A DNA stretch of 64,000 nucleotides from a virus: the IMG/VR virus record IMGVR_UViG_3300022777_000060; one strand, 5' to 3'. The notes under the pieces are model-generated. The model saw nothing but the letters and a program-made list of their open reading frames with translations, did not search any database and had not been told where the DNA came from. A program made the translations under genes and the position numbers. Of the stretch, positions 9,548-29,292 are shown in pieces. Within the stretch, counting starts at the first letter, position 1, and the number at the start of each line of letters is the position of its first letter.

Positions 9548-9574
9548 AAGTTTTTGTTGGTTTTATGATCCTGC

Positions 9575-10278
9575 GCTTCCCAAAAGGAAGCCGATTACAA
9601 GTGATCTTGGTAGTATCTCTGTCTATACATATAACAAACGCATCAGCAACAAAGATTACAGCTATGATATACGGATTAGTGAATAAAGATGGTGGTCAAA
9701 TCCGTTATGTCGGACGGACTTCTCTTTCTGAAAGCAAAAGGAAATCCCTTCATGCACATAGGGCGAAGAAAAACATAGATGAATCTCCAAAAGGCCAATG
9801 GATCCGAAGGGTTGGATTAGATGGGTTTGATATTATTGTTCTTGAAGATGAAACAAAAGATGCTATTGAATCTGAAAAGTTCTGGATTCAGTATTTAGAG
9901 TTTTTAGGATCTGATTTGCTGAATGTCACTGAAGGTGGGAACGGAAATACAAAGGGGGGAGGTATTGAAATAACCGAAAAAATGGAGAGTATGATGGGCA
10001 AAGTTCCTGATCAGAAAATAGCTAACGAGTTTGGTATCGACAGAAAAACTGTCCAAAAACACAGAACTCGCATCGGAATAAGTCCAGTTCAACCCAATAA
10101 CCTAAGTAGCAAAAAAGTATCTCAAGTAAAATGGATGCTCGAAAATACAAACAAGAGCCAAAGAGAGATAGCTAACTCATGTGACGTCGGACAAGCAAGT
10201 GTTTCTCGTATCAACAGAAAAGAAACATATTCCGATGTCACGGGTCAACTATGAAGAGCTTCCCAAAAGGAAGCCGAT
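9575..10278 (+). repeat. 21-bp direct repeat GCTTCCCAAAAGGAAGCCGAT at 9575-9595 and 10258-10278 flanking the endonuclease
   Basis: Read directly from the sequence. Confidence 0.95.
9664..10254 (+). mobile_element. Free-standing GIY-YIG homing endonuclease with C-terminal HTH, antisense to its neighbours
   Basis: MIYGLVNK...RYVGRT, AIESEKFWI; C-terminal SQREIANSCDVGQASVSRI; AT-rich and K-rich relative to flanks. Confidence 0.85.
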
Positions 10279-12937: not shown

Positions 12938-13852
12938 CTAGTATCCGCTGCTTGAGACAACTTGCTCTTTCAGGTCGTCAAGTCCATATTCTTCGATATA
13001 TTTGTCAAATGTTGGACGGCTCACCTCTTCATAGTTGTCGCGAGCATATCTCCGTGCTGCAGCGACTGTGTTAGAGTTTTCAAGGGACTCGCGAACCTGT
13101 CCTTTTGTAAGCTTTCTGCCTTTCTCTTTCCATCGCTTTTTTTGCGCCTTGGAAAGTTTTTTACACTGCTTCTTTCTATACTCCGGATCTTGCCAGTTTT
13201 CTTTTTGTTTCTGCGATAAACGTTCACGAAGTTCTGGATCTTTCATTTTTTCGGCGTGATCAGATTTTCTTATACCTTCGGAGATTTTCTTTCTCGTTTC
13301 TTCACTTCTTGTTTTGCCAGTATGCTGCTCTTTCGCGTTCATAGCAAACTTTTTGCGAAGTCTTTTTGCTTTCTGTTCTCCGTGTATTTCTTCAAAGGAT
13401 TTTCCGGAGCAAGGCGCTCCGTTTTCCTCATATCTCTTTCTTCTATTCTTTTTTATTTCTTTAGCCTTTTCCTCCCCATATATCTCTTCCCACGTGCTGC
13501 CGGATCGGATTTTCTTATTCACACGAGCGGCTTCTGGATTGTAGCCACCGTCTCCACCTTCACATATGTTCGTAAGATTTTCAAGCGTGTGCTCCGCGAT
13601 TAGGTCTTTCTCTTTCTCGAACGCCTTTTCGCTCTCTTCATACTCGTAGGGCTTTTCGTATTCAAGGTCGTCATACCCACTTTCGAGTATCGACTTGATT
13701 TTGTTGTATCGGTGCGGGTTTTTGTTTTTGTAGCTTTGTTTTTTGTTTTTTACGTGTTGAACGTGCTGCTTCATTCTGCCGTTCGTTCCTTTTCCTATGT
13801 AGAACGTTTCACCACTTCGAGGATCAATAAGCTTATATACGTAGTGTTTCAT
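12938..13852 (-). mobile_element. Free-standing GIY-YIG homing endonuclease with NUMOD3-like repeats
   Basis: HYVYKLIDPRSGETFYIGKG, AFEKEKDLI, LTNICEGGDGG, HTGKTRSEETRKKISE. Confidence 0.9.
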
Positions 13853-25975: not shown

Positions 25976-26218
25976 TTACAAAGCGTTCCACTCGTACACG
26001 TGCTGGCCGTCGTCAAACCGTTCGGTGTCGGGATCGACAACAACCTCTTTCTGGTCTTCGCTGCTTCGGGCTTCGATGTACGCAGACCCGACTCGATAGT
26101 TCATTGACATTGCGCCTCGTGGTTTGTTGTCGTCAATGAAGAAGTATCGAAGTTGGCAAGAGTTGTGGGCGATGTAACTTCTTTCGTGCTTGAGAAAGAG
26201 AGGCTTCGGATTCGCCAT
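25976..26218 (-). CDS. Small paralog 1 (LFLKHERSY family)
   Basis: Likely ATG 26218; shared motif with next two ORFs. Confidence 0.6.
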   Translation of the reverse strand: MANPKPLFLKHERSYIAHNSCQLRYFFIDDNKPRGAMSMNYRVGSAYIEARSSEDQKEVVVDPDTERFDDGQHVYEWNAL

Positions 26219-26421
26219 TCGTATCTGTGTTTGTGACCGAAGGCTGTTTTTTTCGATTTGTCCCAATCGATAAGCGTCGGAGAGTGCGGCATTGACATTT
26301 CAATCACGACGCACACTTCATCCGGAACGTGCTTCGCCGGGCCGACGTTGTGCCGATCGTCAACTTTCACGGCCGGACGCTTGTTAATATAACGCCTCTC
26401 GTGCTCGAAAATCAACTTCAT
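26101..26421 (-). CDS. Small paralog 2 (LIFEHERRY family)
   Basis: ORF track; tail overlaps paralog 1. Confidence 0.55.
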   Translation of the reverse strand: MKLIFEHERRYINKRPAVKVDDRHNVGPAKHVPDEVCVVIEMSMPHSPTLIDWDKSKKTAFGHKHRYEWRIRSLSFSSTKEVTSPTTLANFDTSSLTTTNHEAQCQ

Positions 26422-26609
26422 CGGTAGTCAAAATGCCATTTGTCGAGACCTTCATCCGGCTTGACGAGCGCGTTTTTTGACCGCACTTTCGAGAAGGAAA
26501 ACGTGAGCGGAACTTCGCTTGCTCGTCGCGTTTGTACATGGAAGTCCAACCGAACCTGATCTCCCCGCCGAAACATGTAGCGGACTTCGTGCTTGAGAAA
26601 TAGGTTCAT
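26418..26609 (-). CDS. Small paralog 3 (LFLKHEVRY family)
   Basis: ATG 26609 in ATGA overlap. Confidence 0.6.
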   Translation of the reverse strand: MNLFLKHEVRYMFRRGDQVRLDFHVQTRRASEVPLTFSFSKVRSKNALVKPDEGLDKWHFDYR

Positions 26610-26800
26610 GGCCGTTCTGACGGGTCTCGAAGCTCCCAGTTCTGAGCGCCCCAAAGAAACTTGCCGTCTAAGTGCTCTCTGCGCAGCTCTGCGGGGCTGA
26701 ACCAAAGATTACGGTATGGGGAGTAAAAGTGAAGTCCTTCCCTCTCTGCCTTCCAAAAGAGCGGCTCAAGCTCCGCTGCAATGTCGTGTCGATCGGCCAT
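26606..26800 (-). CDS. Small hypothetical protein
   Basis: 64 aa; TAATG-coupled to the stranded ruvC 3' remnant. Confidence 0.7.
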   Translation of the reverse strand: MADRHDIAAELEPLFWKAEREGLHFYSPYRNLWFSPAELRREHLDGKFLWGAQNWELRDPSERP

Positions 26801-26862
26801 TATGATTTGACAAAACTTCGTGCGAGCACAATCGAGTCTGCGGCGTCGTCGCTGCTGTTCAT
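26800..26862 (-). pseudogene. Stranded duplicate of the ruvC-like gene 3' end (MNSSDDAADSIVLARSFVKS*)
   Basis: Manual translation; matches GSDDAADALVLARSYVKSDEE* of 27820..28371. Confidence 0.85.
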
Positions 26863-27671
26863 TCTGGTTTTCTTGTTTCTGTAACGTGTTGCCAGTTTAT
26901 ACCTCTGCTTATTACCGATATATTAGCTGGAGAAGTGTTGTATTTTTTGGCTATTTCTTTTTGTAGCATATCGGTGTTGTTTAGAGGCCACTTTATCTCT
27001 TTTACTTCGTCGTTTTTGAGATCAGCGTTATACTGATCTTCTCCTTTTTGACCGATTTTTTCTTTCGTTTCTTCGGAGTGTGTTCTTCCTCTTGATCTTT
27101 CGGCTTGCTTTTCTCTTTCTTTTGGGTCTTGAAACCGTTTTTTAGTAGCCTCTCCTAGTTTAGATTTCCACTCTTCTGAAAACTCTCTTGATTTTCCATA
27201 CATCGGGTTTCCTTCTCCCGACATTCTTTCACTGTGCTCTTTTTTCCATTCGTCTGATAGAAGCTGTCCTTGTTCCACCAACTTCTTCATTTTTTCACTT
27301 TGGCGCTTCTTAAACTCTTCGCTATGAGTTTCGCCGTAAAACGGATTATCTTCGCCAGTATAAGTTGGCGGTTCGCTTCCATCTTTTGTCATATTCGTTA
27401 GATTTTCAAGTCCGATTCCGTCTATGATTTCAGTTTCAATCTTCAAGGCTTTTTCTTCATCAACGTCTTTTACTATCTTTCTGGCATAAGGTTTAATCCC
27501 ATTTCTTTTCAGTTTCTTTATTTTCCTGTTTTTGTGTTCATTTTCGGGATTATCAGAGTTTAGCTTGCTTTCCCATAAGTGTGATATGTGCCTATACCCT
27601 TTTCCTTTCCCAATATAAAAACATACCTCTTTTTCTTCATCTTCGTAAAATAGTCCATAAACGTAAGCCAT
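26859..27671 (-). mobile_element. Free-standing GIY-YIG homing endonuclease with NUMOD3 repeats and HTH
   Basis: AYVYGL...FYIGKGKG, LTNMTKDG, NPFYGETHSEE, NPMYGK, LQKEIAKKYNTSPANIS. Confidence 0.9.
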
Positions 27672-27702
27672 AAGTCCCACCTCTGGTCTTGCAGTTCAAT
27701 AG

Positions 27703-27750
27703 AAAAGCCGCTTGGCGCGGCGGTGGGACAGGCGTTACCAAGCGGCTTTT
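27703..27750 (-). terminator. Terminator-like hairpin in the leader of the GIY-YIG gene
   Basis: 13-bp inverted repeat AAAAGCCGCTTGG/CCAAGCGGCTTTT. Confidence 0.65.
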
Positions 27751-27819
27751 CAATCAAGTTTTTAGCGTCCCACCGCCAAGTTTATATATCCAGTGAGACG
27801 GCGATTTACCGTTGATTTT

Positions 27820-28371
27820 TTACTCTTCATCGGATTTTACATAAGACCTGGCCAATACCAAAGCGTCGGCCGCGTCATCGCTCCCAGGCCGTGGGTTGCC
27901 AGAACGGGTCATCTCCCACTCCACGTCGTCGTACATCTCTTCAATCTTCTCAAGCGGCCACGCCTTGCTGTCCTTATACGTGGACCACGGGCTCTCGTAA
28001 CTTCCGGGGACGCGCCCTCTGCCAAGCGCTTGCTTCTTCGCTGTGGACGGGTGAATCTTCTCCACACGCTCTTTGCCCATGCGTCGCTGCAGCTCGTATT
28101 CGATGATTCCGTTGAAGCGAAGCAACTTCGTTATTGTCGCCTTGCTGGAAAATCCACCGGCGTACTTCTTCAAGCTGTCTTCAAGAATCACTTTGTCGGC
28201 GTCAGCGATATGCGGCCAAACGTGTTCGTCCCACTGGTCGACCAAGTCGATTAGCTGATAGCCATCGGGCTTGTCGAACTTGTAAAAATCGTATGATTCG
28301 ATTTCTGCGTCCTCATTCATGAGGCAGTAGCCCGCGACAGATGTAGAAAGGTCAAGTCCTGCTATAACCAT
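27820..28371 (-). CDS. ruvC: RuvC-like Holliday junction resolvase
   Basis: IAGLDLST, VILED, LLRFNG, HPSTAKK, DDAADAL. Confidence 0.8.
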   Translation of the reverse strand: MVIAGLDLSTSVAGYCLMNEDAEIESYDFYKFDKPDGYQLIDLVDQWDEHVWPHIADADKVILEDSLKKYAGGFSSKATITKLLRFNGIIEYELQRRMGKERVEKIHPSTAKKQALGRGRVPGSYESPWSTYKDSKAWPLEKIEEMYDDVEWEMTRSGNPRPGSDDAADALVLARSYVKSDEE

Positions 28372-28389
28372 ATTGTGTGTTGTGTGTTT

Positions 28390-29292
28390 TTATGTGTCAA
28401 AGCGCGCCAAAATAGTAAATGGCGTGCTGTCTGGAAACTTGACGGGCCGTGAAATCTTGCCCGTCGCGATTAGTTCAAAGTCGTCGTTGTAAAATCCAGC
28501 GGTGGTGACGTAAGGGCGAAAGTTTCCGTCCTCCAAGGCTTCGATTGGAACGCCTCGGTTTTGCCGCCCCGTTGGATTTGTCGTCGCTCCGAACTCGTCA
28601 GCTTCTACTTTTGCTGCAATCTCATTTTCGTAGTTGGAAACGACGCTTCGGAACTGAATGTTAAAGTCTCGAAAGAGAAGGTCAAATACGTCGTAGTTGT
28701 AATCTGGAAAGGTGGAGTTGGCAATGCTCTCGTCAAAAACGATCTCCTCGAAAGTGTAGTTTGGCCACACGGTAAAGTCAGGCAGCCGAAAAATCTGTGA
28801 TGGCCGCCGTGTCAGAACCAAAGTGCCGGTCGGATAAAACACATTGCCGATTACCGTTTCGGTTCCTTCGAGAAGCAAGTTGCCTTGGCCGTCGTCGACT
28901 GCCGTGAGACTTTCGTCCTCTTGCTGAGTTGAGATTTCGATGGATCCCGGCGCAATGCGTTTGCCGTAGAGCTTGCTCGATACTTTCAAGACATAGATGA
29001 TTGCCCTCGGGTCTCTCGGAAACGTTGAGAGGTCGATTGCAGACGGGTCAAGCACCCCGAAGCGGTCATATATTGAAGCGTCGTCCCTGTAATACAGGTG
29101 GCGGATCATTTCATACACGCCACGCACGTCGGTTCCCGCTTCATTTTTCGGGCTTCTGTCTTCATAGTACGGCGGCTCCAAGTTTGCGCCAGCGTGAAAT
29201 GTGAGTTGAGACGCAGAGTCCTCAAGGCTCCATTCTTTTCGGGCCTGATACTCGCTCGTTGTTACTTTGTCGCCAGAAAGCTGTTTGAACAT
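28390..29292 (-). CDS. Putative baseplate/tail structural protein
   Basis: C-terminal PYVTTAGFYNDDFELIATGKISRP shared with 30164..31363; located in the baseplate cluster. Confidence 0.65.
   Translation of the reverse strand: MFKQLSGDKVTTSEYQARKEWSLEDSASQLTFHAGANLEPPYYEDRSPKNEAGTDVRGVYEMIRHLYYRDDASIYDRFGVLDPSAIDLSTFPRDPRAIIYVLKVSSKLYGKRIAPGSIEISTQQEDESLTAVDDGQGNLLLEGTETVIGNVFYPTGTLVLTRRPSQIFRLPDFTVWPNYTFEEIVFDESIANSTFPDYNYDVFDLLFRDFNIQFRSVVSNYENEIAAKVEADEFGATTNPTGRQNRGVPIEALEDGNFRPYVTTAGFYNDDFELIATGKISRPVKFPDSTPFTILARFDT

Follow-up and report, generated by a model that had tools for sequence, protein, structure and literature searches.

How a phage gene can come to have two versions of its own end, one closing the gene and the other lying behind an endonuclease gene, is the question raised by a locus in the IMG/VR virus record IMGVR_UViG_3300022777_000060, of which a stretch of 64,000 nucleotides (the window, to which coordinates refer unless another sequence is named) was analysed. 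In the region concerned, whose genes are all encoded on the minus strand, the gene for a RuvC-like Holliday junction resolvase is followed by a gene for a GIY-YIG endonuclease and then by a second RuvC end. An earlier note had described these two RuvC ends with the endonuclease between them, and its description proved exact to the base according to the sequence and the list of open reading frames (ORFs). We consider it very likely that the locus represents a mobile homing-endonuclease cassette sitting between codons 163 and 164 of the RuvC gene of a huge phage. Comparison with related sequences shows its architecture, the existence of an empty site, the separate origins of the two tails, selection that keeps the endonuclease intact, and a sister cassette that was recently exchanged between co-occurring phages. 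The cassette would comprise a re-coded last helix of RuvC with D166, D169 and a stop codon, a structured leader, and a free-standing GIY-YIG/NUMOD3 gene. Since the cassette brings its own gene end RuvC would stay whole, while the resident RuvC end would have been pushed behind the endonuclease, where it is still joined to the next gene. The parts of the locus, interpreted accordingly, are as follows (aa, amino acids).

27820-28371, minus strand: RuvC-like ORF of 183 aa, with SDDAAD at residues 164-169
27883..28371, minus strand: putative resident part of the RuvC-like Holliday junction resolvase gene, codons 1-163
27820..27882, minus strand: putative live, cassette-borne replacement tail, codons 164-183 and stop
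27672..27819, minus strand: leader of the endonuclease gene (RuvC-endonuclease spacer, 148 bases)
26859..27671, minus strand: gene of a free-standing GIY-YIG homing endonuclease, 270 aa counted from the ATG
26858..26882, minus strand: right-end cassette junction, covering the final 8 codons of the GIY-YIG gene and its stop
26800..26862, minus strand: putative stranded native RuvC tail, a 20-codon mini-ORF with its 17 homologous codons at 26803-26853
26606..26800, minus strand: next gene, for a 64-aa protein without assigned function, its start overlapping the stop of the stranded tail (ORF list)

The stranded tail is tightly packed between its neighbours. The mini-ORF shares bases with both, its ATG with the TGA of the endonuclease gene (ATGA) and its TAA with the ATG that opens the 64-aa gene (TAATG); both overlaps had been pointed out earlier and are present in the sequence. 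Codons 4-20 of the mini-ORF repeat RuvC codons 164-180 (26803-26853 versus 27832-27882), and a tblastn search of the whole window with RuvC recovered this second copy (E = 0.002) but no other match of similar strength. Over these 17 codons 14 residues but only 33 of the 51 bases are identical, so that the copies differ in 13 codons and just 3 residues, with switches between codon families such as TCT versus AGT for Ser and AGG versus CGA for Arg. When 18 random base changes were simulated, none of 200,000 runs kept the number of residue changes at 3 or below. Since no simulation reproduced the observed pattern, the two copies diverged as protein-coding RuvC ends; neither chance nor in-place decay accounts for their differences.

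The duplicated segment belongs to the catalytic part of a protein that is predicted, largely from its modelled structure, to be a RuvC-like Holliday junction resolvase. The 183-aa protein matched the RuvC-like PHROG 159 (E 4e-12), and its distant homologue P0033 carries PF02075; a Pfam search with the protein itself at E up to 0.1 gave no hit, and a profile of 29 homologues found no match among the PDB sequences. An AlphaFold model based on the alignment of these 29 homologues (predicted local distance difference test score, pLDDT, 91.1) displayed a RuvC (RNase H-like) fold, and its best PDB matches in a fold search were the RuvC structures 7xhj, 1hjr, 6s16 and 6lw3 (template modelling score, TM, 0.67-0.82; E 5e-8), which represent RuvC of D. 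radiodurans, T. thermophilus, E. coli and P. aeruginosa. Four acidic residues, D7, E64, D166 and D169, are invariant in the 29 homologues, and they are the counterparts of E. coli D7, E66, D138 and D141; the D-A-A-D spacing also agrees with E. coli D138-D141. The repeated segment corresponds exactly to the last helix of the model (164-180) and bears D166 and D169, two of the four catalytic acids.

Related loci offer a view of the same site in different states. One metagenome scan yielded four close loci, designated L045 to L048, of which L045, L047 and L048 all come from assembly ERZ1034573. L045 (RuvC 84% identical) has the same layout as the window, with live tail, leader, GIY-YIG gene, stranded tail and a homologue of the 64-aa gene, and shows homology to the window in every segment at 68-82% base identity; its stranded tail starts by ATGA at the endonuclease stop, and its 64-aa homologue starts by ATGA at the stop of the stranded tail. 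L046 (RuvC 82% identical) is without an endonuclease, and its RuvC closes with a tail of the stranded type, 6 bases ahead of a DNA methylase gene (PF01555). In L047 (RuvC 75% identical) a tail and methylase of the L046 type are preceded by an ORF of 283 aa and by a distant-type RuvC 3' end, and L048 (RuvC 73% identical) contains the 283-aa ORF of L047 in another downstream context. The RuvC site thus holds the GIY-YIG gene in the window and L045 and another, probable endonuclease gene in L047 and L048, and it is empty in L046 and in the loci L001-L004. In all four occupied loci the order is inserted C-terminus, endonuclease ORF, native C-terminus, and in an alignment of the five junctions each occupied locus starts to match cassette-free RuvC at the Ser-164 codon. 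Since L046 and L047 form an empty/occupied pair, the downstream copy is the resident end. The earlier note had taken the stranded copy for the ancestral RuvC end and had expected an endonuclease-free relative to carry it; L046 does, and the tail that ends RuvC in this empty site recurs downstream in L047. Its further claim, that the catalytic C-terminus of RuvC was replaced together with the arrival of the endonuclease, is supported by the L046/L047 pair, by the repetition of the layout in L045 and by the clustering of the tails.

This clustering was analysed over the 51 shared bases of the tails in the five loci (the window and L045-L048). Live tails group by cassette, with 42/51 identical bases between window and L045 and 51/51 between L047 and L048, and the four stranded tails match one another at 34-40/51. 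The stranded tail of the window shares 38-40/51 with those of L045 and L048 and 25-36/51 with the live tails; no stranded tail exceeds 36/51 to any live tail, and the live and stranded tails of one and the same genome share only 23-34/51. Moreover, the tail of the empty site in L046 matches the stranded tails of L047 and L048 at 42 and 44/51, compared to 25/51 for their live tails. In the window and L045, the stranded (36-37) and the live tails (36-37) are equally near the L046 tail, so that this pair does not discriminate and the evidence for these two loci is the grouping by class. Among the protein homologues, the closest RuvC relatives are P0001 (95%) and P0002 to P0007 (80-84%), and the window-type live tail is found in the window, L045 and P0001, whereas the tail of P0005 is one residue off the stranded tail of L048 and that of P0002 matches the stranded tail of L045 but for one residue, making P0002 a likely cassette-free allele. 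The only relative in the phage collection, LR756508.1 (59%), is without the cassette, the RuvC relatives in the viral contigs are all at or below 64% identity and all cassette-free, and a search of genome contigs for related loci returned nothing. By these similarities, the live tail is foreign and the stranded tail resident in origin.

The stranded tails, moreover, do not look decayed. All four are open and near the consensus in their residues, and those of the window and L045 have diverged mostly at synonymous sites (proportion of synonymous differences, pS, 0.65; of nonsynonymous differences, pN, 0.08), as has the RuvC body of the same two loci (pS 0.63, pN 0.12). A passive relic older than the split between window and L045 should have a pN close to its pS, and therefore either the strandings were independent and fairly recent or the tail is still under selection. 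Independent, fairly recent strandings would mean repeated homing into naive genomes. A small peculiarity of the window mini-ORF is one extra AGC (Ser) codon (26854-26856) between junction and stranded tail relative to L045, L047 and L048.

Evidence for recent movement at the site comes from the sister cassette. The RuvC genes of L046 and L047 are 90-95% identical up to base ~330 and only 50-70% beyond, and those of L047 and L048 are ~80% identical before this point and 98-100% beyond. The latter two loci have no mismatch over 944 bases (L047 4328-5271) and few up to 5453, and they begin to differ again among the opening codons of the stranded tail. Because this 944-base identity lies across diverged RuvC genes, a block consisting of ~220 bases of the RuvC 3' end and the endonuclease gene seems to have passed recently between co-occurring phages, with the start of the stranded tail as the apparent right-hand exchange point. 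The RuvC gene of L045 (2051-2611) is also a mosaic, the first ~30 codons resembling P0002 and the rest being nearest to P0004 and L046 (90%), and recombination within RuvC appears to be common in this phage group.

The endonuclease has the features of a free-standing homing enzyme. Its ORF is listed as 26859-27680, with a likely ATG start at 27671 that is preceded by GAGGTGGG, and it encodes a GIY-YIG domain, NUMOD3 repeats and a C-terminal domain resembling a helix-turn-helix (HTH) (PF22945, 1e-14; PF07460, 7e-14, in three NUMOD3 stretches). The protein matches the homing endonuclease PHROG 314, its C-terminal region matches DNA-binding parts of phage endonucleases, and its YVYGL, FYIGKGKGYR, E and N positions align to the solved GIY-YIG protein 9u75. 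The body of the gene has a guanine-cytosine content of 35-42%, compared to ~52% in the flanks. The endonucleases of window and L045 are 78% identical with a ratio of nonsynonymous to synonymous substitution rates (dN/dS) of 0.13 at a dS of about 1, and the GIY-YIG gene is intact and under purifying selection, so that it encodes a working protein. A search of the viral contigs for close relatives of the endonuclease found none. In LR756508.1 a stretch of 65 bases (115862-115926) matches the GIY-YIG region of the endonuclease (window about 27602-27666) at 85% identity; it sits ~5 kb from the RuvC gene of that phage, which may have a related endonuclease at another site.

Expression of the endonuclease is probably restricted at the level of translation by the leader, as suggested by analogy with T4 endonuclease genes. 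In the leader, a 13-bp terminator-like stem (27738-27750 / 27703-27715) encloses a loop with GTCCCACCGCC, which is complementary to an upstream GGCGGTGGGAC (27767-27777) and also to GGTGGGAC in the ribosome-binding site of the endonuclease (27674-27681). In addition, a conserved GATATATAA motif is located upstream in the leader, and an 8-mer is present in three copies within 110 bases, compared to 1.2 expected in the whole window. All of these elements are kept in L045, where the stem shows one compensatory G:C to A:T change. The leader hairpins could limit or time the translation of the endonuclease.

The site seems to have had more than one occupant. The 283-aa ORF of the sister loci (L047:4552-5403, L048:4549-5400), whose start overlaps the RuvC stop, is unrelated to the GIY-YIG protein; it combines HTH modules in tandem with NUMOD3-like motifs, and its C-terminal domain bears a weak resemblance to DUF559/Vsr nucleases. 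The leads to its nuclease type are weak (DUF559 at E 0.11; phage DUF559/NUMOD3 clusters with Atlas feature scores of 0.93-0.94), and it probably represents a second homing endonuclease family that uses the RuvC landing site. The 25-27 bases before the stranded tail, which in the window and L045 are the last codons of the GIY-YIG gene, recur in L047 and L048, where they lie ~35 bases after the stop of the 283-aa ORF (alignment score 40 versus a shuffle maximum of 26). This junction sequence is unique in the window, and a search of the viral contigs for the junction pattern gave no match. The simplest reading of these remains is that the 283-aa gene would have displaced the GIY-YIG gene in an already occupied site, keeping its right end.

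The arrangement of an inserted gene flanked by two direct copies might also result from a duplication in place, for example by a transposon-like target-site duplication or by replication slippage, followed by divergence. Such an origin is at odds with a difference of 13 of 17 codons against 3 residues, which arose in 0 of the 200,000 simulations, with the grouping of live tails with the live tails of other cassettes and of stranded tails with cassette-free tails, and with the sequence to the left of the stranded copy, which is the endonuclease 3' end and not RuvC. Contradicted by both the tail clustering and the simulation, in-place duplication was rejected as extremely improbable. We give no more credence to an endonuclease residing in a self-splicing intron or an intein, with the downstream tail as the real last exon. 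Phage homing endonucleases are often borne by introns or inteins, but RuvC is complete here, in frame, stopped before the endonuclease and equipped with all four catalytic residues, and the endonuclease has its own ribosome-binding site and is out of frame with RuvC. Likewise, an Rfam search of 26300-28600 at E up to 1 retrieved no family, introns of group I or II included. Given this result and the endonuclease being a separate ORF after a stop codon, the intron or intein reading was also rejected.

A single old entry of the cassette, now fixed, would account for the locus in another way, the endonuclease being domesticated or inactive for homing, the tail a passive relic and the mosaics a product of ordinary phage recombination. 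The window and L045 cassettes do stand at a dS of about 1 from each other with no sharp identity boundary around the GIY-YIG gene, and nuclease genes are often found at recombination boundaries whatever the cause (PMC10448857). We nevertheless regard this history as unlikely, since the stranded tails (pS 0.65, pN 0.08) resemble live genes, all four of them are open with near-consensus residues, the endonuclease is under purifying selection, and the presence/absence polymorphism together with the 944-base identical block across diverged backgrounds points to recent movement at the RuvC site.

The homing cassette that we favour has several observations weighing against it as well. The comparison rests on only five loci, and among the loci recovered there was no cassette-free genome with the same downstream 64-aa gene; the empty site was provided by L046, where another gene lies downstream, and its direct occupied partner is the sister cassette of L047 rather than the GIY-YIG one. 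The cassettes of window and L045 separated long ago (dS about 1), and the evidence for recent exchange stems from the sister cassette, whose 944-base identical block comes from one metagenome assembly, where some cross-talk in the assembly is possible. Furthermore, we infer the target site, the position of the cut and the immunity of the live tail from the sequence.

If the locus is a homing cassette, its spread could proceed as follows. In a mixed infection the endonuclease would cut a cassette-free RuvC allele near codons 163/164, and the genome with the cassette would then serve as the template for repair of the break. The RuvC body would provide the homology arm on the left, and the stranded tail, together with the downstream gene if the two phages share it, that on the right. 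The re-coded live tail may shield the carrier from cleavage by its own endonuclease. Two codons separate the junction from the catalytic D166, and we infer, in agreement with the earlier note, that the putative cleavage target includes the Asp motif.

A more doubtful proposal is that the mini-ORF acts as a relay that hands ribosomes on to the next gene. The window and L045 fit this idea, with an ATG present, an open frame and an overlapping next gene. In L048, however, the mini-ORF has ATA at its start, even though its stop has kept the overlap with the next gene, and in L047 there is no longer an ORF stop adjoining the ATG, so that the relay peptide is not general. Equally tentative is the suggestion that the stranded tail serves as a portable homology arm of ~50 bases as well as a relay ORF, in a landing pad that was reused by the GIY-YIG enzyme first and then by a DUF559-like enzyme. 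If this were true, these ~50 bases, which represent the most conserved codons of RuvC, would permit homing into phages with unrelated downstream genes, the relay ORF would keep the next gene translated, and a working tail would explain both the open, coding-like stranded tails and the end of the L047/L048 exchange within the first tail codons.

Some features of the surroundings may be added. The 64-aa gene downstream of the stranded tail had no match in Pfam and PHROG searches. It is followed by small paralogous genes with an N-terminal F-x-(K/E)HE-x-RY motif (window 26101-26705, minus strand), and a paralogue with this motif is also found downstream of the stranded tail in L048 (L048:5493-5717). 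The DNA downstream of RuvC is highly variable among the relatives, with methylases in L046 and L047 and primase-like genes in L001-L004. In L001, which is LR756508.1, a 484-kb uncultured phage, a 405-aa ORF resembling TnpB/IS200-605 OrfB (L001:2246-3463) lies just upstream of the cassette-free RuvC, between a virion-region gene and a GroES-like gene. The window itself contains two more GIY-YIG genes, at 12938-13852 (minus strand; PF22945, 1.7e-9) and at 9565-10254 (plus strand).

The locus is a natural example of how a homing endonuclease could enter the coding region of an essential-type phage gene with a re-coded gene end and without the help of an intron or intein, and it presents the site in an empty form, in two occupied forms and after a recent exchange. 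Such a process would shuffle the catalytic helix of a DNA-repair enzyme between phage lineages, and the stranded ends and hybrid genes that it leaves can mislead gene calling and phylogeny. The RuvC site could therefore serve as a testable system for the targeting of active-site codons, for self-immunity by synonymous re-coding and for the succession of selfish nucleases.

The closest counterparts of this layout are the mobile ORFs (mORFs) of fungal mitochondria, which produce gene hybrids in atp6, atp9, cox2 and nad3 of Glomus sp., in atp9 of Rhizopus and in cox2 of Mortierella (PMC3630166). An mORF in atp6 of Allomyces macrogynus was the subject of a 1994 paper, as cited in the same study (PMC3630166). 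The mitochondrial elements have the order inserted foreign C-terminus, endonuclease ORF and displaced native C-terminus, with the native end resembling that of relatives (PMC3630166). The window shares this three-part layout, and its inserted end is likewise diverged in bases and similar in residues. In contrast to the fungal elements it resides in a huge bacteriophage with RuvC as its target, its stranded end has kept an overlap with the start of the following gene, and in sister phages an unrelated second endonuclease gene took over the landing site. In addition, several of the mitochondrial endonucleases are fused in phase, whereas in the window a stop codon and a structured leader separate the free-standing endonuclease gene from RuvC.

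Among phages, intronless homing in T4 involves the free-standing endonucleases SegB to SegG and the Mob proteins, SegF and gene 56 being one example. In the T4 cases the endonuclease gene lies between genes that are intact, and it is not known to leave a duplicated gene end behind. The RuvC locus resembles the Seg and Mob systems in having a free-standing GIY-YIG gene between phage genes, in the presumed cleavage of the allele without endonuclease in a neighbouring conserved gene, and in the co-conversion of flanks, represented here by the foreign RuvC 3' tract of ~220 bases in L047 and L048. It differs from them in that the insertion point is inside the RuvC coding sequence and a stranded copy remains. 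A parallel also exists in the control of the endonucleases, since in T4 genes such as I-TevI and the seg genes hairpins hide the ribosome-binding site in early transcripts. The leader of the window similarly forms a stable hairpin directly upstream of the gene, and its complement of the ribosome-binding site is kept between cassettes. Unlike in T4 this loop segment is predicted to pair with either of two partners and lies within a terminator-like stem.

Intronless homing by free-standing T4 endonucleases has been described, for example, for SegB (PMC2330249), and in ICP1-like phages nuclease genes are located at the boundaries of genetic exchange (PMC10448857). As in the latter, sharp changes of identity between related phages coincide with an endonuclease gene at the RuvC site. 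A term search of the ICP1 study found replacement gene ends or stranded relics not mentioned (PMC10448857), and a literature search of incomplete coverage found no phage report of stranded gene ends in this layout. The mechanism of the cassette is one known from fungal mitochondria, here encountered in populations of huge environmental phages.

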